A DNA stretch of 64,000 nucleotides from Parapedobacter sp. (GTDB taxonomy: Bacteria > Bacteroidota > Bacteroidia > Sphingobacteriales > Sphingobacteriaceae), in the NCBI RefSeq assembly GCF_035556095.1, contig NZ_DATMFT010000016.1:53508-117507 (forward strand). Direction: 5' to 3'. Below, one piece after another: positions 1-39,837 of this stretch (positions are counted from its first letter, which is position 1; each line of letters starts with the position of its first letter). The translations under genes were made by a program, and so were the position numbers. A model generated the notes under the pieces. That model searched no databases. It saw nothing but the letters and a program-made list of their open reading frames with translations, and was not told where the DNA came from.

Positions 1-23
1 TCGACTGCGAGGCTCGATTGTAT

Positions 24-81
24 AAAAGTATTCAGTGAGTGCCAATCCGGCCTCACCCTATGGCTGTACAAGCAGCCTCAA
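24..81 (-). ncRNA. tracrRNA-like structured element, copy 1 of 3
   Basis: 58-nt element nearly identical to 1370..1427. On the minus strand it reads TTGAGGCTGCTTGTACAGCC-ATAGG-GTGAGGCCggattGGCaCTCAC-TGAATACTTTT, i.e. two hairpins plus a U-rich tail. It is followed (minus strand) by ATACAATC, then the window ends. Confidence 0.45.
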
Positions 82-145
82 ATAATGCTCCCAAATAGGT
101 TTGAAAAATTTGTGAATCGGAATCAATATTCATAAATTTGTTTCT

Positions 146-376
146 ATGGAATTAAATGTAAAATTAGGTTTCAATGAACTACTGTCTGCAATTAGAAGTT
201 TGCCGGATAGTCAATTGGCTTTACTGAAAAAGGAACTGGATAAACCAGTAACCTTAGCGGTTCAGCCAAATAAGGCTCTTAAAGAACTGTTGCTAAGCGG
301 GCCTGTTTTTGAAAAGGAACAACTTGCCTCTATTGCAGAAGCCCGAAAATCCATCAATCAAAGGCGGAATCCCTAA
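146..376 (+). CDS. small antitoxin-like protein (VapB-type partner of the PIN toxin)
   Basis: 76-aa ORF ending 5 nt before the PIN-domain ORF. The size and position are typical of a type II antitoxin. No motif was recognised directly. Confidence 0.5.
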   Translation: MELNVKLGFNELLSAIRSLPDSQLALLKKELDKPVTLAVQPNKALKELLLSGPVFEKEQLASIAEARKSINQRRNP

Positions 377-381
377 TCCTT

Positions 382-747
382 TTGGATACATCTATTCTTA
401 TTGATTATTTCCGGAAGAAAGACAAAACCAGAATCCGTCTATATGAATTAACCGATCATTACGAAGGGTTTGTTATTTCAGTTATCACTGAATTTGAGAT
501 TTACGTTGGTGCAAAAGATGACCAATTGCCGTTTTGGACACGTCTTTTAAAAGAGATTCCCGTGATTCCCCTTGATTCGTCAATTGCCGAAATTGCGGTA
601 GGCCTCAACAATCAATTGAAAGCATCCAAAAACCAAATTGCCATTGCAGACCTATTCATAGCCTCAACAGCGCTTTCTTTGGGAGTACCATGCGCTTCGC
701 TTAATCGCAAACATTTCAGCCGGTTAAAAGACCTCACTATCATTTAA
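382..747 (+). CDS. vapC: PIN-domain toxin, VapC family
   Basis: 121 aa. N-terminal xDTSILIDYF with a conserved Asp, TEFEIY with a Glu, and IAIADLFIASTA with an Asp give a PIN-like acidic residue pattern. TTG start as given in the ORF track. Confidence 0.75.
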   Translation: MDTSILIDYFRKKDKTRIRLYELTDHYEGFVISVITEFEIYVGAKDDQLPFWTRLLKEIPVIPLDSSIAEIAVGLNNQLKASKNQIAIADLFIASTALSLGVPCASLNRKHFSRLKDLTII

Positions 748-792
748 TGAACAACTCTTCCCTACCCTGAACAAGGTTAAAGACGGTACCCC

Positions 793-817
793 GTCTGATG
801 TCTGGCGTCTGATGTCT
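793..817. repeat. GTCTGAT-type heptad block 1, fused to a variant array repeat
   Basis: GTCTGAT GTCTGGC GTCTGAT GTCT with strict 7-nt period. It sits directly next to the variant repeat at 824..856. Confidence 0.7.
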
Positions 818-1033
818 AAAAAACATTATACCTTTCAGAATGGGGTCTGTAACACCAAGCTTTTTATAGGCTACAAAAGTATCAGTTGTATATACCTTTC
901 AGAATGTGGTCTGTAACACCGCCGAGGCAATTAGAATCCCGCTCCAGGTAGTTGTATATACCCAGCTGATAGGAACACTACCCAGTAGCCAGTTGTATAT
1001 ACCTTTCAAATGGCATAACTCGATCCGAGCCGC

Positions 1034-1065
1034 GTCTGATGTCTAGTGTCTGGCGTCTGATGTCT
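1034..1065. repeat. GTCTGAT-type heptad block 2
   Basis: GTCTGAT GTCTAGT GTCTGGC GTCTGAT GTCT. It is followed by the variant repeat at 1071..1103. Confidence 0.7.
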
Positions 1066-1239
1066 CAAAACACTATACCTTTCAAATTGGGGTAGTTAAC
1101 ACCCTCAGAAATTGTAGCCGCAAGACTCTTAGTGTTCTATATACCTTTCAAATTGGGGTCTGTAATACCTAAATAGAGCGACGCTTGACGTTTTTGTTGC
1201 ATGTACCTTTCCAAAATTGGGTGTCCACACCGCTCTTCT

Positions 1240-1270
1240 TCTGATGTCTAGTGTCTGACGTCTAATGTCT
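1240..1270. repeat. GTCTGAT-type heptad block 3
   Basis: TCTGAT GTCTAGT GTCTGAC GTCTAAT GTCT. It is followed by the variant partial repeat at 1276..1300. Confidence 0.65.
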
Positions 1271-1369
1271 CCAAACAATATACCTTTCAAATTCGGTAGC
1301 CAACAAAAAAATCCGCGCCCATCAACAAAATCCACGTCATCCGCATTCCAATAAGCTCGTAACAAATAA

Positions 1370-1427
1370 AAAAGTATTCAGTGAGTGCCAACCCGGCCTC
1401 ACCCTATGGCTGTACAAGCAGCCTCAA
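1370..1427 (-). ncRNA. tracrRNA-like structured element, copy 2 of 3
   Basis: Same 58-nt element as 24..81, with one loop difference. It separates the two parts of the repeat array. Confidence 0.5.
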
Positions 1428-1488
1428 TTATTAAATAACCTTTGTGCTCAATGATACCGTCTTACGGCTTTATAATTAATCTGGCGGG

Positions 1489-1747
1489 GTTGTATATATC
1501 TTTTTACTTTAGAAATTGCGTATGCCTTTCAAATTGGGGTCTGTAATACCACAATGCACTAAATCCAAAATACTTTATATGTTGTATATACCTTTCAAAT
1601 TTGAATCCGTAACACCTCCGCTCGTGACGATGTTGCGGTCGGATTAGCTGTATATACCTTCAAATTGAAATCTGTGACACCCTTTTGGCTATTCATATCA
1701 CAAACATCGCTGTTGTATATACCTTTCAAAAAGGGCTTTGGAACAAT
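1489..1747 (-). CRISPR. degenerate CRISPR-like array, proximal part (5 repeat units, about 4 guides)
   Basis: Repeat units at 1489-1500 (12 nt), 1518-1550, 1581-1616, 1648-1681 and 1712-1747 (only the GGTATATACAAC-side half is conserved). Spacers at 1459-1488 (putative), 1551-1580, 1617-1647 and 1682-1711. Further very degenerate units may lie at 1787-1858. Confidence 0.7.
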
Positions 1748-1871
1748 CGTTGACTTAATAAAAAACTCGCTTTCAACTGTATATCTTCCAGGATTAATGT
1801 CAATTTGATACCCGAAAGGTTGTAGATACTCCAGCCGAGAGACATCGTGTTGTGTATAAATCTTAAAATAA

Positions 1872-1930
1872 AAAAGTATTCAGTGAGTACTTTCTTAAGT
1901 CTCACCCTACGGCTGTACAAGCAGCCTCAA
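1872..1930 (-). ncRNA. tracrRNA-like structured element, copy 3 of 3 (nearest the Cas12f-like gene)
   Basis: Same flanks and hairpin 1 as copies 1 and 2. The inner stem of hairpin 2 changes from GCC/GGC to ACT/AGT, which is compensatory, and the single-nt bulge is kept. It lies 70 nt downstream of the Cas12f-like stop codon, between the gene and the array. Confidence 0.55.
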
Positions 1931-1950
1931 AAATTTCAAAGAACTATTTT

Positions 1951-1992
1951 AGTCGTAAGTCGTAAGTCATCAGTCGTAAGTCAACAGTCAAC
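1951..1992. repeat. AGTCGTA-type heptad block
   Basis: AGTCGTA AGTCGTA AGTCATC AGTCGTA AGTCAAC AGTCAAC: six 7-nt units. They start 8 nt past the stop codon of the minus-strand Cas12f-like gene. Confidence 0.7.
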
Positions 1993-1999
1993 TCGCCAC

Positions 2000-3094
2000 T
2001 TACTCCTCAATCACATTAATCCCCGCCTTCTTCGCCTTGTAGGCAATCTTTTCTTTCAACCCGTAGTAGCTCCAATTGCGGAGCAGGAACTCCTCCTCCT
2101 TCGCCACTTCTTCCTTTTGCTGCTGGTTCACCAATAGCAGCGTTCCCGCTTCGGACTTCAGGCACAGGTCGATCAGCCGCCTGCTGTACAGGTGCAGCCG
2201 GCTGTCCACATATTTCTTTTCCTTCGCATCCCAGTCGTCCAGGCTTTTCAGTTTGCGCTGGCGGCCCTTGCCAGACCGGTTGTACGTAGACCCCCGCTGC
2301 AGGCGGTGCCGTGCGGCCTGTATGGCCAGCCGCCGGTGCAGGAACTCCTCCTTGTTGCCGATCTGGAACTGTGCCTTGCCCACCTTCATCACGATGGGGT
2401 GTTCGATGGAGAGCGATGCCTCGGCGATGACCGAATCGTTCAGCTGATGCGCATCGCGCTCCATCTCAAAGGCCGCCAGTAAGTACAGCTTACCCTTGTC
2501 GATTTTCAGCGAACTGGCGCAGAGTTTCAACGTACCCGCGATGTTGCGCTGTATCAGCACGCGCTTGTCCGTTTTGTCCTTGCCGAGGTAGGTCTTGAAC
2601 GGGATTTTGAACAACGTAAACCGGAATTCGCGGTGCTTCTCGTCGGCCACGAATTTCAGCGACTTGCCCGAAAAGGGTAGCGGAATATTGCGCTTGTAGT
2701 TGCGCAGCGATTTCTCCCCCTTCCAGTAGGCGGTACGCTCGGTATTGTACACGCTGGTCAATGAATTATTCAGGTTGGAAAAAATTTCAGAAGGCATCTT
2801 ACCAAGCAGCTTACTGGACAGTACGCGGTAGGTGGTATTCATCCGCGAGGTGTTCAGGATGCCCTCCTCATCCTTGGCGCGGTCGGCCAGCTTCACCTTC
2901 ACCTCGTCGGTAAAGTAAATCAGATCTTTCACCCGATCCTGCACATACAGGTTCGTGAAAATGAGGTTGGCCGCCTGGAAAGCCAGGAACTGCCATTCAT
3001 ACAGCTGCTTGTAGTGGGCATCTTTTTGCGCTTTGTCTTCGCAATCCACATACACCTGTATTTTCCGCGTCAGGATGATGGTTTTCTTTTCCAT
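2000..3094 (-). CDS. miniature Cas12f-like protein, predicted nuclease-dead and C-terminally truncated (dCas12f-like)
   Basis: 364 aa. The segments TIILTRKIQVYV, NIPLPFSGKS..FKIPF, VIAEASLSIEHPIV, GTLLLVNQQQK and LLRNWSYYGLKEKIAYKAKKAGINVIEE are collinear with my recollection of Un1Cas12f1 (TITKTLKLRIV; NFPIPL..IKIPF; IIGGIDVGVKSPLV; GTVQMENLESM; RLRGFWPYAEMQNKIEFKLKQYGIEIRKV). The RuvC-I Asp and RuvC-II Glu positions are non-acidic. The ORF ends before the Zn-finger/RuvC-III region. It is adjacent to the repeat array and the tracr-like RNA. Confidence 0.75.
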   Translation of the reverse strand: MEKKTIILTRKIQVYVDCEDKAQKDAHYKQLYEWQFLAFQAANLIFTNLYVQDRVKDLIYFTDEVKVKLADRAKDEEGILNTSRMNTTYRVLSSKLLGKMPSEIFSNLNNSLTSVYNTERTAYWKGEKSLRNYKRNIPLPFSGKSLKFVADEKHREFRFTLFKIPFKTYLGKDKTDKRVLIQRNIAGTLKLCASSLKIDKGKLYLLAAFEMERDAHQLNDSVIAEASLSIEHPIVMKVGKAQFQIGNKEEFLHRRLAIQAARHRLQRGSTYNRSGKGRQRKLKSLDDWDAKEKKYVDSRLHLYSRRLIDLCLKSEAGTLLLVNQQQKEEVAKEEEFLLRNWSYYGLKEKIAYKAKKAGINVIEE

Positions 3095-3097
3095 GGT

Positions 3098-3916
3098 TTA
3101 GGCCGATTGTTTCGCTTTATTGATGACCGCATAGGCCTGCACGAAGAGCGACTTCACCCGTGTGTCGTCCAGTTGCAGCGCCGCGGCGATTTCCTCAAAG
3201 GAATACTGCAGGTCGTACCGCATGGCCAGCACCTGCGCCTGCTCTTCGGTGAGCATGCCTTCGGCGATGAGTGGTTTGGTGCGGGTGGCGCTATCCAACT
3301 TGGTCGTGTCCGCGAGGGCAGCTTTCAGGTTGGCAATGCATTGCTCCACGCGTTGGGCAACCTCGTAATCCGAGATGCCGCCGAGGTGGTAGGCTATCCG
3401 TTCGTAGTTAAAGCTGTACCGCAGGCACAGCCGAAGAAATAGCTGCTGCTGGTCGGTCAGGTTGGGCAACAGTCGGTTGACCTGCGCCAGCTGCCGTTGT
3501 TTTTCTGCTTCCAGTTGTTCGAGATATACGGCGTCCTCCTCGGCTTCGTCCTCCAGTTCGTTACCCAGCATAAATTCCTGGAAATCTTCGATGCCATCCA
3601 GCCGCAGCATGCTACGGTGGAAACGGTTGAGGCTCTTCCGGTAGTAGGCCATGCCCGCTTCGCGGAGTTGCTGGCCGAGGAACTCGTGCAGGTGGGCTAC
3701 ATCGCGTATGACGTCGCGCATGAGCCACAGGCGGAGAAATCCCTCCTGCGCAATGGTATTGCCCACCATATCGTCCTTAACGAACCGCTCGGCCCGCCAT
3801 GCGTAGTGGTCGTAATGGGCGCGATAGAAATAATTCAGTCCGGTTTCGTCGCCCGTCTTGAACCGATGGAATGCCTCGGTCGCATTTTTTCGTGTTTGGC
3901 GATTGGTTTTCAACAT
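3098..3916 (-). CDS. ECF-type sigma-70 family factor with an extra C-terminal sigma4-like HTH
   Basis: 272 aa. Region 2-like NTIAQEGFLRLWLMR. Region 4-like LTDQQQLFLRLCLRYSFNYERIAYHLGGISDYEVAQRVEQCIANLK. A second similar HTH reads LTEEQAQVLAMRYDLQYSFEEIAAALQLDDTRVKSLFVQA. The stop codon is 3 nt upstream of the Cas12f-like start. Confidence 0.8.
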   Translation of the reverse strand: MLKTNRQTRKNATEAFHRFKTGDETGLNYFYRAHYDHYAWRAERFVKDDMVGNTIAQEGFLRLWLMRDVIRDVAHLHEFLGQQLREAGMAYYRKSLNRFHRSMLRLDGIEDFQEFMLGNELEDEAEEDAVYLEQLEAEKQRQLAQVNRLLPNLTDQQQLFLRLCLRYSFNYERIAYHLGGISDYEVAQRVEQCIANLKAALADTTKLDSATRTKPLIAEGMLTEEQAQVLAMRYDLQYSFEEIAAALQLDDTRVKSLFVQAYAVINKAKQSA

Positions 3917-4227
3917 AATCCGGTTCTTGGTTTAAAAATTTTGAAATAGATATCTCCCTAACAACAATGAGTCGCTATTTAGGGACTTAGGCTATCCGCT
4001 GTCTCTGGGAGAACGTGGGATGTTGGCGTGGGCGGATGCTATTCGGGCGAGCACTTTACGGTGGCCAACAGGCTCCGGAAGTGACGGTGCGTTCTTGATG
4101 TGTAGTCTGGTTGCTTTTTCACGATCTTGTATAATTTGGTCCTCTTTGGTGAAACAAAGGTATGTGTTTTATTTTTATTAAACAAATATGTTTAGTGTGA
4201 ATTTCAAACATTTCCCTTGTTTGCCGA

Positions 4228-4452
4228 ATGGCAATAGATATTCAAACATTCAAAACCCAGTTGGGCCAGCGTATCCGGGTGCTTAGGGAACGCCGTGGAC
4301 TTACCCAGATGGAGCTTGGGGCATTGATGGATAAAGATTTCCAGGCAATCAGCCGGATGGAAAAGGGGCGGGTCAATCCGTCGGCTTATCAAGTGTATGT
4401 GCTGGCGGGAGCGCTCGGCGTGCCTATCGAGGAGTTTTTTGATATGAAGTAA
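4228..4452 (+). CDS. XRE-family helix-turn-helix transcriptional regulator
   Basis: 74 aa. LGQRIRVLRERRGLTQMELGALM...ISRMEKGRVNPS is a typical Cro/C1 HTH. It is divergent from the sigma/Cas12f-like operon. Confidence 0.8.
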   Translation: MAIDIQTFKTQLGQRIRVLRERRGLTQMELGALMDKDFQAISRMEKGRVNPSAYQVYVLAGALGVPIEEFFDMK

Positions 4453-4548
4453 ACCCATTTGCACCGTAACTAAATTTGGCGTACCTTTGCGGCCGTTAAT
4501 TATTTTTTTATTGTTTCATTAAGTTCACGCTTTAATATTATTCAAGTA

Positions 4549-7748: not shown

Positions 7749-9206
7749 ATGAACTTGATTAGATTTGCTTGTTTTCTCGCCGTTTTTTCCTTTTATGGCT
7801 TATCGGCTGTCGCACAACCCTACCCGTCATTAAATAACGAAAAGGTTGATGGGTATCAGGGTATTTGGTTCACGTTGGGGCAATTTTCGGAATATGGGGA
7901 TAAATATTCCGGCGGCTTGGGAACCTATACCGCCAAGCATATTCCACTGGCTATCTATTCGCCAACGGTAGACAAAACGTTCTTTGTTTACGGCGGGATC
8001 GTAAAAGACCGGGTGAGTGATGCTGATCCAACCGATCCCAAAGCAAAGGCGAAGGGTGATTACTTGGTCTGCATGATCGGAAGCTACGACCATAAAACGG
8101 GTACTGTTGAAAAACCTACAGTCGTATACGATAAAGGGGGTGTTTTCGATCCACACGATAATCCGTCCATAGCCATGGATTCAGATGGGTACATCTGGGT
8201 GTTTGTGAGCGGGAGAGGGCGCGGTCGGCCGGGATTTATCTATAAAAGCAGTTTGCCGAATTCCATCGATAAGTTTGACATGATTTCGGAACGGGAAATT
8301 ACCTATCCGCAACCCAAATATGTTGACGGGGAAGGCTTTTTGCACCTGTTTACCAAGTATCTTGGCGTTCGGTTGTTGTACTTTAGTACGAGTAAGGACG
8401 GTGTTGAGTGGACCGATGACAAACAACTTGCAGCCATAAAACGGCCGGAAGACAAGAATGGCGGCCACTATCAAATCAGCGGTCAACTCGGAGAGAAAAT
8501 CGTGTTTTTTTATAACTGGCATCCAAATGGAAACGTAGACCGCAGAACGAATATCTATTATCTGCAAACTACTGATTTCGGCCGTACGTGGACTACCGCG
8601 GAGGGCACGCCGGTGTCCACCCCCGTGACCGAGGTTGACAACCCTACCTTAGTCAGGGAATTCTTCTCAAAGGAAGAAAATGTATATATCAAGGACGTTG
8701 CCTTTGACAAGAATGGCAATCCGGCGGCACTATACCTTTCGGGCGCTGGGCACCAACCCGGGCCCCAAAACGGAATGCGGGAATGGCAGGTAATCCATTG
8801 GACGGGAGAAAAGTGGGAAAATCACACCATAACGACTTCGGATCATAATTATGATACCGGTAGCTTATGGATTGATGGGGATAAATGGGTTGTGATAGCG
8901 CCCACCGAGAACACACCCCAGCAATGGGGCGGTGGCGGCGAGCTCGTGCTCTGGGAAAGCAAAGATAATGGCAAGACTTGGAAGTCGAAAAAGCAGATTA
9001 CCAAGAAAAGCGAGTTAAATCACAACTACGTGAGAAAAGTAGTGAATGGAAAAGATCCATTTAAATACTTTTGGGGTGATGGCGACCCCCATACCCACAG
9101 TGAATCCCATTTATATTTTGGCGATTCCAAAGGAAGGGTCTGGCAGTTGCCTTACACGATGGATGCAGATGACGTAAAGCCGGAAAAAGGGCTGCGAAAA
9201 AAATAA
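7749..9206 (+). CDS. secreted BNR_4-type beta-propeller protein (possible GH145/PL42-like), paralog of 28109..29611
   Basis: Signal peptide. YQGIWFTLGQ..YSGGLGTYTAKH..DKTFFVYGG and TNIYYLQTTDFGRTW are shared with the paralog. The family assignment is from memory. Confidence 0.55.
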   Translation: MNLIRFACFLAVFSFYGLSAVAQPYPSLNNEKVDGYQGIWFTLGQFSEYGDKYSGGLGTYTAKHIPLAIYSPTVDKTFFVYGGIVKDRVSDADPTDPKAKAKGDYLVCMIGSYDHKTGTVEKPTVVYDKGGVFDPHDNPSIAMDSDGYIWVFVSGRGRGRPGFIYKSSLPNSIDKFDMISEREITYPQPKYVDGEGFLHLFTKYLGVRLLYFSTSKDGVEWTDDKQLAAIKRPEDKNGGHYQISGQLGEKIVFFYNWHPNGNVDRRTNIYYLQTTDFGRTWTTAEGTPVSTPVTEVDNPTLVREFFSKEENVYIKDVAFDKNGNPAALYLSGAGHQPGPQNGMREWQVIHWTGEKWENHTITTSDHNYDTGSLWIDGDKWVVIAPTENTPQQWGGGGELVLWESKDNGKTWKSKKQITKKSELNHNYVRKVVNGKDPFKYFWGDGDPHTHSESHLYFGDSKGRVWQLPYTMDADDVKPEKGLRKK

Positions 9207-9239
9207 ATTCAATACGTATCATTCGAAAACGAAAAAACA

Positions 9240-11936
9240 GTGGTGCATATACGGCTTTTTCTGGGTATAGCGGCGTTCTTCATCCTTGCTGGTTGCGGGG
9301 GACGGCATCCGGTTATTACAACCAATGATTTCGAGACCGCCGAAATCGGACCGTTTGTCGAGGAGGGGTTTCCTTTTATCACGGGGCCATTGAATTCCGA
9401 TAAACTAGGTCCGGGCTTCCCGAAACGTAACCGCTCCGCCAGGACATTGTCAATCAATCTTGGTGACAGTGCCTACGTGGGATTTGACATGGATTTACTC
9501 CGGTGGTCGGTGGCCTGGGATGGCGAATTCTTACCCATGGTAACCATGTCCCAAATTTCATATGACGACTTTTTCAATAAGGGGGATAAGATCCCGTCGA
9601 TCTTGGGTACGCCCAGGATAGCCACGGGTGAGTATGCGGGGTGGACTATTGACACGCCAAGCTTTTCGGACCCCAGGAATCCGTCCGGCAATGCAGACCC
9701 CCATCGATATGGGCCAATACCGGAACAGATCGGTAGGTGGAATGGCATCTATTTAAAAGGAGATGATGTTGGATTGTCCTATACGATAGGGACGACAAAC
9801 ATCATGGAGCACCCCAGCAGCATACGTTTTGGGGAAGAAACTGCCTTTTCAAGAACGTTCAAATTAGATGAACTGCAACGGGCATTGTATCTCAATGTCG
9901 CCGAGGTGGGGAGTGACTCATACACCGAGGCAACAGGCGCTGTTCTGTATATCTACCACGGAGAAGCCCGAGACACCGTTACGGTAATCGGGGTGGTAAC
10001 GAATCACGAGAAAGATTTGGCGCCGGCAATTGTGGATAACAAATACGTTACGGTGCTTTTCCCACGAGCCACTGATCCTTTGGAGGCCACCGTGCTGATG
10101 TGGAACGGTCCAGCAGAAAAGAAAGGTGCGTTCTTGGACATATTGAGCGAAGCTAAAACCAAGATGCCCGATTTCAGTCGCGGGGGACCGGCTTACTGGA
10201 AGGAGACCGTTTATACACAAGGAGCATTATCACCTGATACGGCTGCCTATGTTACCGATATCCTAACGCTTCCGCTACCCAATCCATGGAAGCGGAATGT
10301 ACGGGTGGCTGATGCGGCTTTTTTTGATGGCAAGCGTGCGGCGGTGGTTACTTTTTCCGGCGATGTTTGGGTGGTGGAAGGGATAGACAAGAGCTTGAAG
10401 CGACTGAAGTGGCGCCGGTTTGCTTCAGGGTTGTATGAGCCCATGAGCATCGACGTGGTGGACGGTGTGATTTACGTCTTTGGAAAAGAAGGTATTGTGC
10501 GGCTGCACGATCTGAACCGTGATGGGGTGGCCGATTTCTATGAAAATTTCTGCAACGGAATGGAGCAGTCGCTACATTCGCGTGAATGGGCAGCAGATAT
10601 GGTTTCCGCACCTGGCGGCGGTTTCTACATTGCAAAAGGGGGTATTGGTGGCTCTTCGCAGCGGGGTACCATCCTCAAGGTGTCGGCCGATGGGCGAGAG
10701 GTGGAGACCATTGCATCGGGGTTGAGAGGGCCATATATCGGTATCCATCCTACTAAAGGTATCCTGTCTGCTTCAGATCAACAAGGCAATTACGTGCCCT
10801 CTACACCGTTGTTGCTGGTGGATAAAGGCGACTACTTCGGTTTTCCCACTGCGCCTGAGCATCGTCAGGCACCCATCAAAACACCGCTGGCTTGGATTCC
10901 ACACCGTGTCGATCGTTCGGGTATCAGTCAGACATGGATTACAGGCGGAAAGATGGGACCGTTAGACGAGCAAATGATTCATTTTTCATTTGCCCGCCCA
11001 GGCTTGTTCAAGGTACTCATCGATACTACTTCAAGCACACTCCAGGGAGGTGTTTCGTATTTGCACGCAAACTACCCGGCGCCAACGCAAAAAGGAACGA
11101 TAAACCCGGCTGACGGCCAATTGTACATAACTGGATTTAATTTATGGGGCTCGAGTTCCAAAGGTGTAGCGGCATTTGTTCGCTTGCGATATACCGGCCT
11201 GCCATTTTATTTGCCTGAACGATTCAAGGCGGGCGAGCAGGGAATTGTCCTGCGATTCGGTGTAGCGCTGGATTCGACAGTAGCCATGAACCCGTTGAAT
11301 TTCCAGGTCAAAAGGTGGAATTACAAACGTACCAAGGAATATGGGTCGGGCCACTTCAAACTCGATGATACACCGGGAGAGGAATCGATGCCTGTATATG
11401 CATCATATATCTCTGCCGACCGTAAAGCAGTTTTGATTGTTGTGCCGGGTATGGAGGAGGTGATGCAAATGGAGGTGTTGTATAACCTACGGTCAACAGA
11501 TGGTGCTGCGTTGGAGGACGGTCTTTGGTTTACCGTGAACGAGGTGGACAAAATCAATTTGGCTAGGGAAGGGTTTCGCGGGCCCATCGATTTGTCGATA
11601 AACCGTGCTGCAAGTATTTCGGCGGAAACTGCCGAGGAGCGTCCGTCCCAAGAAAAAGGCGCTCAACTTTTCAGGGCAGTGGCATGTGCAGGTTGTCATT
11701 CCCCCGGTGTCGACACCGATGGGTTTTACGGCCCTCCGTTTAAGGATATATTCATGTCGGAGCGCCAGTTTGCAGACGGTACCTCGGGAATTGCCGACGA
11801 AGATTATATCCGCGAATCCATATTAACGCCTGCTAAAAAAATTGTAAAAGGATACGATGCCGAGATGCCTTCTTATTTAGGGATGCTCTCTGATAGCGAT
11901 ATCGAATCGCTTGTGTTATATATTAAATCTTTATAG
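9240..11936 (+). CDS. lipoprotein with beta-propeller dehydrogenase-like region and C-terminal c-type cytochrome domain
   Basis: 898 aa. LAGC lipobox at the N-terminus and a CAGCH haem-binding motif near the C-terminus, followed by an ESILTPAK..MP type cytochrome c tail. GVG start. Confidence 0.55.
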   Translation: MVHIRLFLGIAAFFILAGCGGRHPVITTNDFETAEIGPFVEEGFPFITGPLNSDKLGPGFPKRNRSARTLSINLGDSAYVGFDMDLLRWSVAWDGEFLPMVTMSQISYDDFFNKGDKIPSILGTPRIATGEYAGWTIDTPSFSDPRNPSGNADPHRYGPIPEQIGRWNGIYLKGDDVGLSYTIGTTNIMEHPSSIRFGEETAFSRTFKLDELQRALYLNVAEVGSDSYTEATGAVLYIYHGEARDTVTVIGVVTNHEKDLAPAIVDNKYVTVLFPRATDPLEATVLMWNGPAEKKGAFLDILSEAKTKMPDFSRGGPAYWKETVYTQGALSPDTAAYVTDILTLPLPNPWKRNVRVADAAFFDGKRAAVVTFSGDVWVVEGIDKSLKRLKWRRFASGLYEPMSIDVVDGVIYVFGKEGIVRLHDLNRDGVADFYENFCNGMEQSLHSREWAADMVSAPGGGFYIAKGGIGGSSQRGTILKVSADGREVETIASGLRGPYIGIHPTKGILSASDQQGNYVPSTPLLLVDKGDYFGFPTAPEHRQAPIKTPLAWIPHRVDRSGISQTWITGGKMGPLDEQMIHFSFARPGLFKVLIDTTSSTLQGGVSYLHANYPAPTQKGTINPADGQLYITGFNLWGSSSKGVAAFVRLRYTGLPFYLPERFKAGEQGIVLRFGVALDSTVAMNPLNFQVKRWNYKRTKEYGSGHFKLDDTPGEESMPVYASYISADRKAVLIVVPGMEEVMQMEVLYNLRSTDGAALEDGLWFTVNEVDKINLAREGFRGPIDLSINRAASISAETAEERPSQEKGAQLFRAVACAGCHSPGVDTDGFYGPPFKDIFMSERQFADGTSGIADEDYIRESILTPAKKIVKGYDAEMPSYLGMLSDSDIESLVLYIKSL

Positions 11937-18739: not shown

Positions 18740-21700
18740 ATGAATTCTTATGTAGACCTTAAAGGCCGTACCCGACTGCCTTTGGTAAATCGGGTACTGC
18801 GTAATCTCGTAGTAACCACGGTGGCGGTAGTGGCAGCGATGCCCTACGTGTCGGCGGGAATGTTTAGCCCTGCTGATGTCACCTTACACCGACTGGAAAC
18901 GTCGGTACGGAAGCCCAACAGTATGTTGCAGGATACGGAGGTTCGCGGTACCATACGCGACTCGACAGGATCATTGCTTACCGGTGTATCCATTCACGTT
19001 AAAAACCGGACGTCTATCGGTACGACCACCGATCTCAACGGACGCTATTTATTGAGTGTTCCGGCTGGATCCACGCTGACGTTCTCAATGGTAGGGTTCG
19101 AGACCCAAGAGATAGCGGTGGGTAACCAAGAAGTCATCGATGTGGTGCTTGTCGAATCCTCATCCATGTTGGATGATGTGGTCGTGACCGCTTTTGGTGG
19201 CGCGGTAAAGCGCACGGACATGATCGGCGCCATTACGTCGGTTAAGCCCTCAGATCTCAAAGTGCCATCCAGTAACCTGACCACCGCTTTGGCGGGACGG
19301 GTTGCCGGTATGATTGCCTATCAACGAAGCGGCGAGCCAGGTATGGACAATGCGGATTTCTTTATCCGTGGTGTAACCACATTCGGTTATAAAAAAGACC
19401 CGCTGATCCTGATTGACAACCTCGAAGTGACCACCACGGAATTGGCCCGTCTTCAACCGGATGACGTAGCGAGTTTCTCGATCATGAAAGATGCCACTGC
19501 AACGGCGCTGTATGGTGCCCGGGGGGCCAATGGAGTCATCCTGATTACGACCAAAGAAGGTACCGAAGGGAAGGTGAAAATTAATGTGCGGCTGGAAAAC
19601 TCGATCTCGGCACCTACACGCAACGTGGAGCTGGCCGATCCCGTTACTTATATGGAGTTGCATAATGAAGCCGTGAAAACGCGGGATCCGTTGGGGGAAC
19701 AGCCTTATTCCCAAGGGAAGATAGATAACACAAAGGCCGGAACGAATGCGATAGCCTACCCAGCGACTGATTGGCGGAAAGAACTTTTCAAGGACTATAC
19801 CATGAACCAACGGTTCAACCTCAACCTTTCCGGCGGTGGGAGCGTTGCCCGTTACTACGTGGCTGGAGCGGTTACCAAAGATAATGGCGTATTACAGGTA
19901 GATCCGCGTAATAACTTCAATAGTAACATCGATCTGACGAGTTATAACCTTCGCTCGAACGTCAATGTTAACCTGACGAAATCCACCGAATTGATTATCA
20001 GGATGAATGGCAACTTTGACGATTACACCGGGCCGATAGCGGGGGGAAAAGCGATGTACCAAATGGTGATGCGTACCAATCCGGTTCTTTTTTCCGCCTT
20101 TTATCCACCGGGCGAAGATTATCAGCACGTTACCCATATCATGTTTGGAAATTATGAGGAAGGTAATTACCTGAATCCTTATGCGGAAATGGTGAAAGGG
20201 TACCGTGATTATTCACGCTCGTATGTACTGGCCCAGTTGGAGTTGAAACAAGACCTGGCTTTCCTCACCGAAGGCTTGCAATTCCGTGCGTTGATGAATA
20301 CGAACCGGACCTCGTTTTTTGATGTCAACAGAGCCTATTCGCCATTCTACTACTCGTTAAACGGTTATAACCGGCGTGCGGACACCTATAGCTTATCGCT
20401 CATCAATGAGGATGGTGGACGGGAATACCTCGACTATAATGAAGGGCCGAAGGAGGTGAGTTCTATCTTTTACCTGGAGTCTGCGTTGAGCTACAACCGG
20501 ACATTCGGCGAAAAACATGGTTTGAGCGGCATGTTGGTATACATCATGCAAGAGCGGCTGTCGGCCAACGCGGGGAGTCTGCAGCTCTCCCTCCCGTATC
20601 GGAATATAGGTTTGTCGGGTAGAACAACGTATGCATACGATAGCCGGTATTTCTTCGAGTTCAATTTCGGCTATAACGGATCCGAGCGGTTTTACAAAAA
20701 CAACCGTTTCGGCTTTTTCCCGTCTGCCGGGTTAGCATGGACGATTTCCAACGAAAAATTCTTTGAACCGATTACGTCGACGGTCAACAACCTGCGCGTA
20801 CGGGCCACTTACGGCTTGGTTGGTAACGATGCAATCGGGAGGCCGGAAGACCGGTTTTTCTATTTGTCGAATGTAGACATGGAGGCCGGTGGAGGCACGT
20901 TCGGCCGGGACAATGGCTATTCACGGTCGGGTGTTAACGTAACGCGGTACGCCAATTCGGACATCACTTGGGAGCAAGCCGAGAAGATGAATGTTGCTTT
21001 GGAAGTCGGACTGTTCAAGAAATTGGATATAACCGCAGATTTCTTTAAAGAACACCGGACCAATATCCTGATGGAACGGTCGCACATCCCATCAACTATG
21101 GGGCTTGGCACCGTCAATGTTATGGCCAATGTGGGTGAAGCCACAGGCCGGGGGGTCGATCTGTCGGCCAATTATTCGCATAGTTTTATCAATGGGTTGT
21201 GGCTTCAAGGAATGGGCAATTTCACGTTTGCGCAAAGTGCTTTTAAAGTATATGAGGAGCCGGAATATAGCGAGTCGTGGCAGTCGCGTGTTGGCTATTC
21301 CGTCAATCAGGAATGGGGCTACATTGCCGAGCGCTTATTTGTTGATGAGCATGAGGTGGCCAATTCGCCGAGGCAGAATTTCGGTGAGTATATGGCTGGC
21401 GATATCAAGTATCGTGACGTCAATCGGGATGGCCAGATTACCGAGTTGGATATGGTTCCCATTGGCTTTCCGACGATGCCCGAAATTGTATATGGATTTG
21501 GTCTTTCCGCAGGATGGAAGAACCTTGATTTCAGTGTGTTCTTCCAAGGCCTGGCTAGGGAGTCATTCCGGATCGGCGTTGCCCAAACGGCGCCTTTTCT
21601 CAGTCATCGATACAGTCCCTCCGAATTGCCGGGGATAACGCTTCAGAATCAGCTGCTCAAAGCGTATGCGGACGACCATTGGTCTGAAGACAACCGGAAC

Positions 21701-21994
21701 CTCTACGCATTGTGGCCCCGGTTAACTGCCACCACCAATACAAACAATACCCAACGCAGTACGTGGTTTCAGCGCGACGGCAGCTTCCTACGGTTGAAGC
21801 AGGCTGAAATCGGATATACGCTGCCCCAGGGCCTCACTGATCGGGTGTGGCTGAATAGCTTGCGTTTTTATGTGAGCGGGACGAACCTGCTATCGTGGAG
21901 TAAGTTTAAACTATGGGACGTGGAGATGGCGGACAATGGCTTGGGCTACCCCGTACAGCGCGTTGTCAATTTGGGTTTACATGTTTCATTATAA
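18740..21994 (+). CDS. SusC/RagA-family TonB-dependent outer-membrane transporter
   Basis: 1084 aa. Carboxypeptidase-regulatory-like VRGTIRDSTGSLLTGVSIHVKN, a plug (DATATALYGARGANGVILITTK), and a C-terminal beta-barrel ending in ..NLGLHVSL. Confidence 0.9.
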   Translation: MNSYVDLKGRTRLPLVNRVLRNLVVTTVAVVAAMPYVSAGMFSPADVTLHRLETSVRKPNSMLQDTEVRGTIRDSTGSLLTGVSIHVKNRTSIGTTTDLNGRYLLSVPAGSTLTFSMVGFETQEIAVGNQEVIDVVLVESSSMLDDVVVTAFGGAVKRTDMIGAITSVKPSDLKVPSSNLTTALAGRVAGMIAYQRSGEPGMDNADFFIRGVTTFGYKKDPLILIDNLEVTTTELARLQPDDVASFSIMKDATATALYGARGANGVILITTKEGTEGKVKINVRLENSISAPTRNVELADPVTYMELHNEAVKTRDPLGEQPYSQGKIDNTKAGTNAIAYPATDWRKELFKDYTMNQRFNLNLSGGGSVARYYVAGAVTKDNGVLQVDPRNNFNSNIDLTSYNLRSNVNVNLTKSTELIIRMNGNFDDYTGPIAGGKAMYQMVMRTNPVLFSAFYPPGEDYQHVTHIMFGNYEEGNYLNPYAEMVKGYRDYSRSYVLAQLELKQDLAFLTEGLQFRALMNTNRTSFFDVNRAYSPFYYSLNGYNRRADTYSLSLINEDGGREYLDYNEGPKEVSSIFYLESALSYNRTFGEKHGLSGMLVYIMQERLSANAGSLQLSLPYRNIGLSGRTTYAYDSRYFFEFNFGYNGSERFYKNNRFGFFPSAGLAWTISNEKFFEPITSTVNNLRVRATYGLVGNDAIGRPEDRFFYLSNVDMEAGGGTFGRDNGYSRSGVNVTRYANSDITWEQAEKMNVALEVGLFKKLDITADFFKEHRTNILMERSHIPSTMGLGTVNVMANVGEATGRGVDLSANYSHSFINGLWLQGMGNFTFAQSAFKVYEEPEYSESWQSRVGYSVNQEWGYIAERLFVDEHEVANSPRQNFGEYMAGDIKYRDVNRDGQITELDMVPIGFPTMPEIVYGFGLSAGWKNLDFSVFFQGLARESFRIGVAQTAPFLSHRYSPSELPGITLQNQLLKAYADDHWSEDNRNLYALWPRLTATTNTNNTQRSTWFQRDGSFLRLKQAEIGYTLPQGLTDRVWLNSLRFYVSGTNLLSWSKFKLWDVEMADNGLGYPVQRVVNLGLHVSL

Positions 21995-22006
21995 ATGGAG
22001 TAGATC

Positions 22007-23905
22007 ATGAAAGAAATTAAAAGAATAGGAATCGGTGTTTTATTGTTGTTGGGTATTTCCTGCAACAGCTACCTTGACGTGGTTCCTGATAACGTGGCAA
22101 CCGTGGATCATGCATTTAACATGCGCAATACCGCAGAAAAATATCTATTTACCTGTTATCGTTACCTCCCGTCACATGCGAGTTTAGGTGATAACCCTGC
22201 CTTTGCAACTGGCGACGAATTCTGGTTTTCCAATTCGTTTCTCCAGTTCCACTCGGCACCGGGATGGCAGATTGCCCGAGGTAACCAGAGCATTGTCTCC
22301 CCGATTTTAAACTATTGGGACGGCGTCAGTCAACCGTTCAAAGGTATCCGCGACTGCAATATCTTCATCGAAAATATTGGTAGGGTACCCGACATGCTGG
22401 ATGAAGAAAAGGACCGGTGGATTGCGGAGGCGAAGTTTTTAAAAGCCTATTATCATTTTTGGTTGATGCGGATGTATGGGCCGATTCCGATCATCCGCGA
22501 AAATCTGCCGATTTCCGCGTCGGTTCAAGAGGTCCGTGTGGCGCGGGAGCCGATCGACGATTGTGTGGCCTATATTGTGGAGCTGTTGGACGAAGCCGTA
22601 GTGAACCTGCCTGACGTCATTTCGGATGAATTGACAGAACTGGGACGTATTACGAAAACCATTGCCTTGTCGGTGAAAGCGAAAGTGTTGGTGACGGCAG
22701 CCAGTCCACTATTCAATGGAAATAACGAGTATGTAGGATTCGCTGGGCCCGACGGACGGGAGTTGTTCAACCAAACGTATTCGACCGATAAGTGGCAACA
22801 GGCAGCGGATGCCTGCCGGGAAGCGATCGATGCATGTCATGAGCTGGGTATGAAATTATACACGTTTGAGCTCGGCATCAGTCAGTTTTCGCCGTCGGAA
22901 GAGACCATCACCCAGATGAGTATACGGAATAGCGTAACGGAGCGATGGAATTCAGAGATTATTTGGGGCAATACAAATAGTACCGCTGTGGCTTTGCAGC
23001 GGCAAGCGACACCGCCGCTGGACCCTACAAACAGCGTAAATGCCAACACACTGGGAAATATGGCGCCGCCAATCAAAATCGCGGAGCAGTTCTATTCGAA
23101 AAACGGGGTGCCCATCGATGAAGATGTGACCTATGATTACGCAGGGCGTTTTGAATTGCGTGAGGCAGATGAAGCAGATAAGTATCATCTGCAAACGGGA
23201 TATACGACTGTTGGGCTCCATTTTGACCGCGAAGAGCGGTTTTATGCCAGCTTGGCGTTCGACGGCGGACTGTGGTATGGCCAGGGCCGATTAGATGATA
23301 ACGATCAGTGGACCATCCAGGCTAAATTGGGGCAAGCACAAACGCGTGTATCCAATAACCGTTTCTCCGTAACCGGATACTGGCCCAAAAAACTGGTTAA
23401 TTATGAAAACATCATCGGTGCGGGAAACACCTATACCGTCCAATACTACCCTTGGCCTGTAATGCGGCTGTCGGATTTGTATTTATTGTACGCCGAGGCA
23501 TTAAACGAACTGAATGAACAACCGAGCGACGAAACCTATGAATACTTAAATAAGGTTCGCGAGCGGGCGGGTTTGCCGACGGTCCAGGATGCATGGACAA
23601 ACTTCTCCAGACAGCCGGATAAATTCACCACACAGGTGGGGCTGCGGAGTATCATCCAGCAAGAGCGGCTGAACGAGCTGGCTTTTGAAGGGAAACGATT
23701 CTGGGACCTGAGGAGATGGAAACGTGCACATATCGAGTTGAATAACCTGATCACCGGTTGGGACATTGACCAAGAGAATCCGGAAACATACTATCGCCAA
23801 CGTGTATTATTCAACCAGACATTTATGATGCGTGATTATTTCTGGCCCATCCGGGAATCCAACCTGATTGTGAATCGGAATCTGGTGCAGAATCCGGGTT
23901 GGTAA
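22007..23905 (+). CDS. SusD/RagB-family nutrient-binding lipoprotein
   Basis: 632 aa. A lipobox (GISC) and the C-terminal ERLNELAFEGKRFWDLRRW...NPGW signature. Confidence 0.9.
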   Translation: MKEIKRIGIGVLLLLGISCNSYLDVVPDNVATVDHAFNMRNTAEKYLFTCYRYLPSHASLGDNPAFATGDEFWFSNSFLQFHSAPGWQIARGNQSIVSPILNYWDGVSQPFKGIRDCNIFIENIGRVPDMLDEEKDRWIAEAKFLKAYYHFWLMRMYGPIPIIRENLPISASVQEVRVAREPIDDCVAYIVELLDEAVVNLPDVISDELTELGRITKTIALSVKAKVLVTAASPLFNGNNEYVGFAGPDGRELFNQTYSTDKWQQAADACREAIDACHELGMKLYTFELGISQFSPSEETITQMSIRNSVTERWNSEIIWGNTNSTAVALQRQATPPLDPTNSVNANTLGNMAPPIKIAEQFYSKNGVPIDEDVTYDYAGRFELREADEADKYHLQTGYTTVGLHFDREERFYASLAFDGGLWYGQGRLDDNDQWTIQAKLGQAQTRVSNNRFSVTGYWPKKLVNYENIIGAGNTYTVQYYPWPVMRLSDLYLLYAEALNELNEQPSDETYEYLNKVRERAGLPTVQDAWTNFSRQPDKFTTQVGLRSIIQQERLNELAFEGKRFWDLRRWKRAHIELNNLITGWDIDQENPETYYRQRVLFNQTFMMRDYFWPIRESNLIVNRNLVQNPGW

Positions 23906-29689: not shown

Positions 29690-30300
29690 GCGGACAACGT
29701 ACTAGCTGTTTGCGGTACTACAACGGCGGGTTGAAATATGGCAATGGACTGCTGATGTACTGCATTGAATAGTTGCAGTATTACCATGTGCTATTGACAT
29801 ACCACAATAGACTTTTGATATACTGCAATGCAACAAATACATACCACGAGAGGCTGCCGGCATACGACCACGCACTGTTGATATACTACAGTATGATGGC
29901 AACACATTACAATGGGCCGTAGATATACTGCAGTGCGCTATTGATATACGACGTGAGGCTATTGACATACCGCAACAGGCCGCTGATATACTACATTGAG
30001 CTGTTGAAGTATTACAATACGCAAATGACCTACTACAATAAGCTGTTGATGTACTGCAATGCGCTTTCGATATATTACAATGGGCCGCTGGTATAACACA
30101 ATAAGCTGTTGATGTACTGCAATGCGCTTTTGATATATTACAATGGGCTTTTGATATATGTCAATGGGACGTTGACATATGGCGATGGACCGATGCGGTA
30201 TGCCAACAGCCCATTGCGGTACAACTTTAGGGTGTCGCGGTACCGCAAAAGCCCATTGCGGTACCGCAAATCACCATTGACCCTTGCTATGCGCCCAGGT
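29690..30300. repeat. 21-nt tandem repeat tract A (about 29 units, consensus TATACTGCAATGNGCTNTTGA)
   Basis: Strict 21-nt phasing of a (T/C)ATAC anchor across about 600 bp. It includes a 63-bp higher-order duplication (30040-30102 vs 30103-30165). The last units change to CGGTACCGCAAAAGCCCATTG. Confidence 0.85.
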
Positions 30301-31440: not shown

Positions 31441-32031
31441 CTAGCGAAAATCGGGCATTATCGGGCATATTGGGTTCCATTTCGGGCATTTAAGGTGGTA
31501 TTTATCGGGTGTATTGTGCAACATGCCCGGCTTTCCGGTACTGGGGAAAAGTTTCCCGGTACCGGGAAAATGTTACCCGTCGCTGGAAAGGTGCAAACCT
31601 GTATCGGGGAGGTTGTACCCGGTGCTGGCAGAAAGTTTTCCGATACAGGGAAAATACGAACCCATACCGGAGAGATGTTACCTGGTACGGGGAAAAAGCT
31701 TTCCAGTACGGGGAAAAAGCTTTCCAGTACGGGGGGGAAGCTTTCCGATACAGGGAAAATACGAACCCATACCGGAGGAGAGTTACCCGACACAGGGAGA
31801 ATGTTAATCCATACCGGTAAAGCGCCACCCCGTATCGGGGGAGCGCTTACCAGTATGGGTTCGACAAAGAAGGATATCGATTTAACACGGACCGATATAG
31901 GTGCGTTGTATTCTGATGCGGGTTATTGTTTCTCCGGTATCGGTACATCGTCCCCCGGTAAGGGGGCGAGGTTTCCCGGTGCAGGTCGGCGACTCCGCTG
32001 TGTTAATTTATCCGGCTACCTGATCGTTTAG
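31441..32031. repeat. 21-nt tandem repeat tract B (about 28 units, consensus GGTACGGGGAAAAAGCTTTCC)
   Basis: 21-nt phasing of a GGTAC/GATAC anchor. Five overlapping ORFs, three on the plus and two on the minus strand, run through it because the units lack stop codons. It starts 2 nt after the 111-bp direct repeat. Confidence 0.85.
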
Positions 32032-39600: not shown

Positions 39601-39817
39601 AAGATTGAAAAACGTTGAACTCGGATACAGTTTTGATGCTGCCAAGCATATTTTGTTAAAGCGGCTCGGCATGTCGAGTTTACGTCTTTATGCCAATGGT
39701 TATAACCTGTTGACTTTTGACAATCTAGGACTCATAGACCCGGAATCTGTACCAACGGAAAATGCACAGTATCCGCTGATGAGAATATTCAATTTTGGTT
39801 TAAACGTAACATTCTAA
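36686..39817 (+). CDS. SusC/RagA-family TonB-dependent transporter
   Basis: 1043 aa. IKGKVVDSEGNPLQGVSVNVVGT, DASATAVFGVRGANGVIIVTTKRG, and a C-terminal barrel ending in FGLNVTF. Confidence 0.9.
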   Translation: MKLTAILLLFFTFKVSADCCAMSAIVGVPSSYDPPGNPIPPIQIKGKVVDSEGNPLQGVSVNVVGTTVGSTTNSEGFYVISIVDNSSVVLEFSSVGFQRKSVTVGTQTEINVTLEEDVAGLEEVVVVGYGTQKKLTVTGAISSVGSADLIKSPNASVANTLAGRVTGLATVQYSGRPGGDDPITYIRGIGSLTSAASAPLTLVDGVERPFTQLDPNEIESVSVLKDASATAVFGVRGANGVIIVTTKRGTEGPAKISVSASAGLQQPLRLPVFVDSYTHAKMYTEAQQNDDPNAVLKFSPEALEAFRTNSDPIIYPNTDWVNYILKPSAFQTQENVNISGGTKAVRYFVSLGYLKQDGLFRIFDLPDNNNYSYNRYNYRVNLDIDVTKTTTLSLTTGGRSEFRNEPLADEPQFSIWRNIYFAQPYRGIGIVDGKHIQSDPRYISGETRDALNGYYGKGFQNALTNPLNFDLMLNQQLDALVKGLSFKVKGSYNGSYSFTKIRNSSRATYLASYLHDLDPTEPDDKTVVYRKIGEDGTLGYAERYDKARDWYFETAFSYDRMFEAHRVTGLLLYNQSKTFYPTSNVDIPRGYVGLVGRITYDYQSKYLLDLNMGYNGSENFAPERRFGLFPAISAGWVVSEEKFMKAYAPFIEYLKIRGSYGVVGNDRMGNSRFLYLPDSYSANSGGYSFGVNVPQNQIGASEGKVGNPLVTWEKSKKKDIGLDLTMLNGKIAVVADYFTEHRDNILTTRQTVPGILAINLPAVNIGVVDNHGYELQIKWRDNIGAFNYMISPNMSFARNKIVFMDETPQRESYLLRTGNRVNQPFGYVFDGFWTETDVANIGNFPNANYEAKPGDLRYKDLNGDGQINVDDQRPIGFPDYPEYVFGLTIEMQYKGFDLHMMWSGATNVSRAFQGSFQLPFGPTHGFGLMKYMADGRWTPETAASATYPRMTFLGIENNMKYSDYWLKDASYARLKNVELGYSFDAAKHILLKRLGMSSLRLYANGYNLLTFDNLGLIDPESVPTENAQYPLMRIFNFGLNVTF

Positions 39818-39837
39818 CATCATAAAATTTCAAGGTG

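Follow-up and report, generated by a model that had tools for sequence, protein, structure and literature searches.

A structured element repeated beside a Parapedobacter dcas12f gene is probably the 5' module of natural dCas12f-sigmaE guide RNAs

A stretch of 64,000 nucleotides (nt) from Parapedobacter sp. (contig NZ_DATMFT010000016.1, positions 53,508 to 117,507; hereafter the window) contains three near-identical copies of an element of about 58 nt, here called cores, which lie on the minus strand between positions 24 and 1930, directly downstream of and on the same strand as an rpoE-dcas12f gene pair (Table 1). We assign a probability of roughly 85% to the conclusion that the three cores form the conserved 5' part of natural guide RNAs belonging to a dCas12f-sigmaE system. 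This system, in which a nuclease-dead Cas12f (dCas12f) acts together with a sigma factor, has been characterised by Hoffmann et al., Nature 2026 (PMC13472631) and in a structure preprint (PMC12259091); dCas12f binds a natural single guide RNA of 85-105 nt, encoded beside the gene, downstream of dcas12f (PMC13472631). The analyses described below directly show the element and its structure, as well as its linkage to dcas12f throughout the family and its homology with the beginning of a Flagellimonas guide that is a close relative of an experimentally defined one.

The cores were recovered with a repeat finder as families D6, D7 and D8. Their mean identity is 92%; over 64 nt, copies 1 and 2 agree at 95% of the positions, and copy 3 has the same flanks but a different middle part. 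On the minus strand they follow the pattern UUGAGGCUGCUUGUACAGCC(A/G)UAGGGUGAG[inner stem-loop]ACUCACUGAAUACUUUU, and each copy folds into a hairpin 1 (GGCUG-CUUGUA-CAGCC) followed by a hairpin 2 (GUGAG[inner stem]A-CUCAC), with folding z-scores of -2.3 to -3.3. In hairpin 2, copies 1 and 2 have GCC/GGC as the inner stem and copy 3 has ACUU/AAGU; a 1-nt bulged A is common to all, and RNAalifold counted two pairs changed on both sides among the three window copies. A three-copy structured element with a compensatory exchange of the inner stem had been proposed in a first-pass annotation of the window, and repeat finder, minus-strand fold and RNAalifold bear this out. The hairpin 1 16-mer GGCTGCTTGTACAGCC occurs exactly three times in the 64 kb (0.35 occurrences expected at up to 3 mismatches), and a filter-free covariance-model scan of the whole window detected only the three known cores. 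Rfam searches revealed nothing relevant, either in the whole window at gathering thresholds or in positions 1-4500 at E-value thresholds.

A covariance model (R1) built solely from the three window copies was run on 80 dcas12f loci from species-representative genomes, a search of relatives suggested in the first-pass annotation. Of its 199 matches, found in 81 sources, 197 lie on the dcas12f strand; this context, together with the fold, supports the earlier idea of a structured RNA module on the minus strand. The best 150 matches fall into 69 sources with 1 to 9 copies per locus, so that several copies at one locus are normal for this family, contrary to the first-pass annotation. Among these 150, the matches in Parapedobacter and Pedobacter are located 13-3349 nt downstream of dcas12f and those in Sphingobacterium 1-4.8 kb upstream. 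An R1 alignment of 148 distinct sequences showed 96.7% of the cells paired, compared with 28-47% when the partners were slid, and changes on both sides in 7 of 12 pairs.

The connection to a defined guide RNA was made through Flagellimonas. The sequence of the Fta dCas12f was rebuilt from a PDB alignment and led to a Flagellimonas relative, whose locus was fetched and encodes a dCas12f 95% identical to the protein studied by cryo-electron microscopy (cryo-EM). Here R1 matches 8 nt past the dcas12f stop codon (44.6 bits, E 4e-10). The Flagellimonas guide reads GAUAUUGAGGGUGCUUGUACACCC…CUCACUAAGUGUGAACAACACAUACAAC+UUGUGGGAUACACG, with the scaffold GAUAUUGAGGGUGCUUGUACACCCGUAAGGUGAGGUUGACAACAACACUCACUAAGUGUGAACAACACAUACAAC followed by UUGUGGGAUACACG. 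By sequence, this agrees with the published Fta guide, which consists of a 76-nt scaffold and a 14-nt guide and in which residues 77-79 pair with residues 87-89 (PMC12259091). Because R1 matches the start of the Flagellimonas guide, the window element corresponds to the first ~58 nt of the ~76-nt dCas12f scaffold.

Downstream of hairpin 2 the cores carry a tail, AUACUUUU(U), that had been noted as complementary to the CRISPR repeat over about 9 bp with G-U wobbles. It pairs with the repeat segment GAAAGGUAU over 9 bp including 2 G-U, and the duplex in the window has an energy of -6.8 kcal/mol versus -5.9 kcal/mol with a shuffled tail. For 44 loci, a consensus repeat end was derived from recurring …CAA(C/U) termini independently of the cores and then compared with the tails. 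With the repeat counted from its 3' end, position i of the tail faces position i+3 of the repeat; in that register 84% of the cells pair, versus 16-58% in shifted registers. At one tail-repeat position the clades differ by an exchange of U-A, seen in 56 cases, for C-G, seen in 33, and the complementarity of tail and repeat thus holds up and co-varies across genera. The Flagellimonas scaffold, read by eye from its sequence, displays the same anti-repeat register with GUGU/ACAC.

The copies differ in the 3' part of the scaffold. Core 3 is joined through UUAUUUU to the repeat end AAGAUUUAUACACAAC, which is followed by the guide ACGAUGUCUCUCGGCU; judged by its sequence, copy 3 is a predicted compact fused single guide, whose predicted length (84 + 16 nt) lies within the published range. 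The guide 3 module is kept in P. deserti (L004) and P. composti (L005), where it is located further downstream, behind an intervening guide unit, and is unfused to a core. Copy 1 is probably also a compact fused single guide, and ACAAC+AGAGUCUCG is found at the position equivalent to its scaffold end and guide in Parapedobacter relatives. In copy 2, a linker of ~70 nt (1369-1302) separates the core from a degenerate repeat, and pairing of the tail with this repeat is predicted in both the minimum free energy (MFE) and the centroid structures; in these folding models copy 2 is of a long-linker type closed by the tail-degenerate repeat pairing. Copies 1 and 3 are indeed followed by the repeat-end-like sequences given in the first-pass annotation, and its hint of naturally fused single guides agrees with the known single guides of the dCas12f-sigmaE family. 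Its statement that each copy heads a different part of the array does not apply to the window, in which an array segment follows copy 3 only; behind copy 2 there is just one degenerate repeat, and the array headed by copy 1 lies beyond the window.

This flank was reached via the antitoxin gene on a metagenome contig of the same species (L085, 99.3% identical over the overlap), which adds 9.3 kb. Past core 1, the contig shows an array of ~10 units and another toxin-antitoxin pair; next come a fourth core, which has an array of its own, and a fifth core that is truncated (48 bits). Over ~5.5 kb, the whole locus has five or more cores and five or more array segments, with toxin-antitoxin genes in between. 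The window repeats are degenerate, with 60-95% identity to the reference copy.

The effector gene supports this assignment. The 364-aa protein (aa, amino acids) encoded upstream of the cores matches PDB 9n9c, "Nuclease-deactivated Cas12f", over residues 2-362 (E 4.3e-128); when it is aligned with an active Cas12f (9nzo_B), the match stops at residue 414 of 506. Ser227 occupies the position of the RuvC-I Asp. A Pfam search with this open reading frame (ORF) gave no match; its nearest homologues are from Parapedobacter, with 97% identity. The 272-aa sigma factor encoded upstream of dcas12f aligns along its full length (residues 16-266, E 7.5e-37) with the RpoE chain 9n9q_C from that cryo-EM complex, and the C-terminal helix-turn-helix (HTH) domain is part of the alignment; a Sigma70_r4 match lies at residues 222-261. 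The locus is of the hth / rpoE / dcas12f type already in the literature, and its effector, rather than a Cas12f nuclease, is a dead Cas12f with a truncated C-terminus, encoded in one operon with a sigma factor. The element had been linked to a Cas12f-like gene from the start; that tie stands, with the qualification that the effector is dead, truncated and partnered with a sigma factor.

From these data a mechanism can be proposed. The cores would be transcribed on the minus strand like rpoE-dcas12f, with predicted 5' starts of the guide RNAs near UUGAGGCUG, at 1932 and 83. A dCas12f dimer would bind the two hairpins, the tail would pair with, or be fused directly to, the 3' end of the CRISPR repeat (…GGUAUAUACAAC), and the 14-16 nt past the repeat end would serve as guide. 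By homology with Flagellimonas, the dCas12f-guide complex on matching DNA may recruit the co-encoded sigma factor and RNA polymerase, and transcription would start at a fixed distance downstream with no need for a promoter motif. In the published systems, the DNA recognised by dCas12f carries a minimal 5'-G motif; dCas12f brings in sigmaE and RNA polymerase, and transcription starts 45-48 bp downstream, promoter motifs being unneeded (PMC13472631, PMC12259091). The 60 nt upstream of the 150 cores are A/T-rich and do not contain a common Bacteroidetes-type TAnnTTTG motif.

Several points weigh against a role of the cores as guide RNA modules. The plus strand of the cores folds as well as the minus strand and the energies do not separate the two, so that the strand assignment rests on context. 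The alignment behind the covariation counts was fitted to the model, which favours structure. The tail-repeat duplex of copy 3 is weak and absent from its MFE structure; copy 1 ends in ACAAUC rather than ACAAC, and the 15 nt taken as its guide could instead belong to a linker of 35 nt leading to the next array's first repeat. In the window and the 9.3-kb flank, searches with guides 1 and 3 and the array spacers gave no targets and only chance-level matches, with no plausibly placed match at ≤2 mismatches in 14 nt within 73 kb. For the Parapedobacter organism itself, the expression of the element, its RNA ends, the guide boundaries and the targets are inferred.

The first-pass annotation had described the element as resembling a trans-activating CRISPR RNA (tracrRNA). 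RNA immunoprecipitation sequencing (RIP-seq) of 16 homologous systems found single guides and no separate tracrRNA or tracrRNA-like species (PMC13472631), and "tracrRNA" therefore denotes ancestry rather than demonstrated function. With a rather low probability, the cores, and in particular those that lack a guide like copy 2, would in addition function as true tracrRNAs in trans. In such a dual-RNA mode, which is compatible with copies 1 and 3 being single guides, AAUACUUUU would pair with GAAAGGUAU of the array CRISPR RNAs (crRNAs), and dozens of array spacers would be used by dCas12f-sigmaE. Tail and array repeats co-vary at a fixed register across loci, and in Parapedobacter relatives most of the regular arrays (66-nt period, up to 14 units) come after a core. 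In 14 period-chained arrays, the 3' half of the repeat (anti-repeat partner and terminus) is 91% conserved versus 71% for the 5' half; this fits selection on the part that a tracr-bound crRNA would keep, although the asymmetry is partly biased because the 3' half served to locate the units. The conserved guide 3 unit of L004 and L005 lacks a fused core, and the Nature paper predicts susCD targets for spacers of vestigial arrays, yet has no tracrRNA there (PMC13472631). Besides the RIP-seq result, the duplex energy argues against a trans function, being barely better than that with a shuffled tail, as do the failure to find spacer targets in the window and the 9.3-kb flank and the absence of a terminator 3' of the cores. 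The sigma-70 promoter and terminator scan of positions 1-2100 gave no enrichment over shuffles. The arrays could also be decaying relics kept by descent: spacers are common to several species (L004 8952 equals L006 8994; window spacer 1617-1646 is close to L008 8501) and array blocks are duplicated within L006. The wider claim that in Parapedobacter and many Sphingobacteriaceae the cores double as trans tracrRNAs for arrays conserved in their 3' half, as an incomplete collapse to single guides, appears doubtful, somewhat more so than the dual-RNA mode as such.

We also considered that an ancestral Cas12f CRISPR locus has left the cores, and the arrays most of all, as remnants, with at most one guide in use and copies 1 and 2 as non-functional duplicates. 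The degeneracy of the window repeats, the toxin-antitoxin genes that break up the arrays and the truncated fifth core outside the window would fit such debris; likewise, no adaptation genes were detected among the ORFs scanned beside the locus in the window, and no large cas-like ORF in the L006 array flank. This reading is nonetheless unlikely, as the cores are still 92% identical on average, keep both stems via compensatory changes and retain their structure in ~70 loci, with tail and repeat co-varying. The same compensatory changes speak against a generic genome-wide repeat, be it a repetitive extragenic palindrome (REP), a miniature inverted-repeat transposable element (MITE) or a terminator-like sequence, and against an array leader acting at the DNA level with no RNA function. 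The element is short and hairpin-rich, and the equal folding of its plus strand would suit such a repeat, an alternative raised when the element was first noted. But only three copies are present in 64 kb, all within 2 kb of dcas12f, the family matches are all at dcas12f loci with the strand bias given above, neither hairpin is directly followed by a terminator-like T-run, and Rfam has no match. We regard this explanation as very improbable and retain, as the best-supported reading, that the cores are guide RNA modules of the dCas12f-sigmaE system.

Table 1. Positions of the cores, predicted guide parts, array segments and neighbouring genes in the window
Feature	Position	Strand	Basis or detail
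3' end of compact scaffold 1 AUACAAUC (23-16) and putative guide GAGCCUCGCAGUCGA (15-1), cut by window edge	1..23	-	sequence, L085
Core copy 1	24..81	-	repeat finder, fold, 93.1 bits
Array segment C, last repeat degenerate, then AGACNNN tract	818..1011	-	repeat finder, sequence
Array segment B, last repeat 3'-degenerate, then 7-nt-period AGACNNN tract	1065..1231	-	repeat finder, sequence
Long linker after copy 2, ending in degenerate repeat …GAAUUUGAAAGGUAUAUUGUUUG (1301-1272)	1272..1369	-	folding, duplex
Core copy 2	1370..1427	-	repeat finder, fold, 93.7 bits
Array segment A, degenerate 36-nt repeats (GGUGUUACAGACCCCAAUUUGAAAGGUAUAUACAAC), spacers ~30 nt	1489..1747	-	repeat finder, sequence
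Mini-repeat GGAGUAUCUACAAC (repeat 3' end only), then conserved spacer CUUUCGGGUAUCAAAUUG	1819..1832	-	sequence, relatives
Predicted compact single guide RNA 3, ~100 nt	1833..1932	-	scaffold 1932 to 1849 (84 nt) ending UAUACACAAC; 16-nt guide ACGAUGUCUCUCGGCU 1848-1833
Core copy 3 (hairpin 1, hairpin 2, anti-repeat tail)	1872..1930	-	repeat finder, fold, 86.5 bits, RNAalifold
dcas12f, nuclease-dead C-terminally truncated Cas12f, 364 aa	2000..3094	-	PDB 9n9c match
rpoE, extracytoplasmic function (ECF)-type sigma factor with extra C-terminal domain, 272 aa	3098..3916	-	Sigma70_r4; PDB 9n9q_C
hth, divergent Xre-type HTH gene, typical of such loci	4228..4452	+	HTH_3, E 8.5e-12

Genes of the SusC/SusD class are the usual targets of the dCas12f-sigmaE system (PMC13472631). 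Target sites are expected between genes, with a 5' TAM, upstream of susCD, two-component or rpoE-dcas12f genes, and the published rule asks for a 6-nt seed free of mismatches and the correct orientation. Two ORF pairs of SusC/SusD-like size, assigned by size, are located on the plus strand of the window at 18740-23905 (1084 and 632 aa) and 36686-41592 (1043 and 585 aa); no guide or spacer match was found upstream of either susCD-like operon. A candidate site for guide 3 in the hth-rpoE intergenic region (CCGCTGTCTCTGGG, 3996-4009, plus strand, 11/14 matching) was set aside as probably due to chance, because three matches of that quality occur in 64 kb. The guide motif AGAGUCUCG recurs after scaffolds in several Parapedobacter and Sphingobacterium loci and is located upstream of rpoE in four Pedobacter loci. 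The Pedobacter sites of the motif (AGAGTCTCG) lie on the operon strand after a repeat-like GGTATAAAAA (L050 5974, L057 5111, L076 5615 and L079 1328 (+)). They may represent an auto-regulatory target or the hth-associated non-coding RNA known from the literature; by analogy, their placement is reminiscent of the published auto-regulatory category. The compact-guide motif GAG(C/U)CUCG is complementary to the scaffold 5' end UUGAGGCU and pairs with it in predicted folds (window 1-23 + 76-83, minus strand; L004 10067-10146; L005 8121-8201), which could reflect self-masking like the P5 stem of the Fta guide, or chance.

Long regular arrays are present in the Parapedobacter relatives L001-L008 and L040 (about 8100-11800). 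In the window, a PIN-domain toxin and its small upstream partner (146-376 and 382-747, plus strand) are located between array segment C and core 1; a second PIN_3 toxin-antitoxin pair lies outside the window at L085 7854-8484, and in P. luteus (L006) the arrays are separated by small ORFs. Tracts of low complexity that repeat every 7 nt were found at 787-815, 1035-1066, 1240-1270 and 1951-1990, each directly after a degenerate terminal repeat or a gene end. On the minus strand they read AGACAUC AGACGCC AGACACU…, with GACUUAC repeats past the dcas12f stop codon, and in relatives GAGACAGACA is located immediately 5' of the first core (L001, L003, L004, L008). These tracts are possibly a protein-binding or insulating element. 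Further tandem repeats with a 21-nt period at 29908-30188 (~12 copies) and 31535-31841, the latter inside the ORF 31495-32031 and including a 105-nt period, appear unrelated to the guide locus.

The system, its single guides, multi-guide loci, loci with interspersed arrays and the fusion of a tracrRNA with a half repeat have all been published (PMC13472631, PMC10691335). The element is thus a rediscovery of the guide scaffold of an RNA-guided sigma factor and adds little alone. Within one genus, however, tracr-like cores are found at three stages, namely with a long linker to a repeat, with a short linker and in direct fusion to a repeat end, and these stages back the published fusion scenario with concrete intermediates. 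The anti-repeat still co-evolving with array repeats makes the use of array spacers by dCas12f-sigmaE testable and, should they be used, also the involvement of a trans-acting RNA that had escaped the earlier RIP-seq. If the cores did act as tracrRNAs in trans, one sigma factor could be directed to dozens of array-encoded sites, and the locus would represent a natural dual-RNA activation regulon programmed by arrays, a stage still alive today between immunity by CRISPR-Cas12f and the control of transcription by single guides.

Among known RNAs, the tracrRNA of Un1Cas12f1 (Cas14a1, type V-F1) offers a sequence parallel to hairpin 1. The hairpin GGCUGCUUGCAUCAGCC, to which the first-pass annotation had pointed, is real: the Un1Cas12f1 single guide RNA (sgRNA) as printed in two papers reads …GGGCUGCUUGCAUCAGCCUAAUGUCGAG[stem-loop]CUCGAAACAAAUUCAUUU-GAAA-GAAUGAAGGAAUGCAAC, and the hairpin GGCUGCUUG(C/U)A(U)CAGCC agrees at 15 of 17 positions. 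As in the window, it is followed by a second stem and an A/U-rich anti-repeat, and the order of features (hairpin, short spacer, second stem, anti-repeat, repeat 3' end) is the same. The second stem is GUCGAG…CUCGA in Un1 and GUGAG…CUCAC in the window, and the anti-repeat pairs just 5' of …AUGCAAC or …AUACAAC, respectively. In a local alignment of the element to the sgRNA only hairpin 1 aligned (shuffle p ~0.01), so that it is chiefly the common order of features that speaks for homology with the tracrRNA. Engineered ge4.x Un1 scaffolds, which lack the repeat:anti-repeat duplex, are much like the natural compact copies 1 and 3. In contrast to Un1Cas12f1, the window element has no counterpart of the 5' half of the tracrRNA (stems 1 and 2), its effector is nuclease-dead and sigma-linked, and a separate tracrRNA molecule would be hypothetical. 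A type V-F tracrRNA working with a nuclease-active, immune Cas12f was rejected: the effector is truncated and without RuvC residues, the repeats are degenerate and the spacers are found across species.

TnpB omega-RNAs and TldR guides share with the predicted guides the design of one RNA with scaffold and 3' guide, and a small effector with a RuvC fold. They differ in that the window locus has no transposon ends or tnpA, its scaffold does not overlap the 3' end of the gene, and this scaffold resembles a Cas12f tracrRNA plus repeat. The hth / rpoE / dcas12f locus type was named "Sigma-TnpB" by Altae-Tran et al., PNAS 2023 (PMC10691335), in connection with omega-RNAs and omega-RNA arrays; they proposed a scenario in which Cas12f loses RuvC-III, the array shrinks to a half repeat beside the tracrRNA, and fusion and duplication follow. 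The protein clade and the scenario of a tracrRNA fused to a half repeat are the same for the window locus; the difference is that arrays, with 3 to 28 repeat ends, have been retained beside the cores both in the window and at many loci of Sphingobacteriaceae.

The closest known counterpart is the dCas12f-sigmaE system itself. The genes are the same (hth, rpoE with a C-terminal domain, truncated dcas12f), several guides per locus lie beside the operon on the dcas12f strand, and a homologous scaffold ending in …AUACAAC is followed by a short guide. Some published dcas12f loci likewise contain several tandem guides, and one Sphingobacterium locus carries full-length guides among discontinuous CRISPR arrays (PMC13472631), similar to the arrays interspersed in the window. 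The Parapedobacter locus is not specifically described there; it is unusually rich in cores and array segments, and its scaffold 3' parts vary from a 3-bp mini-stem to a ~70-nt linker. It is thus an unusually elaborate, new Parapedobacter representative of the dCas12f-sigmaE systems.

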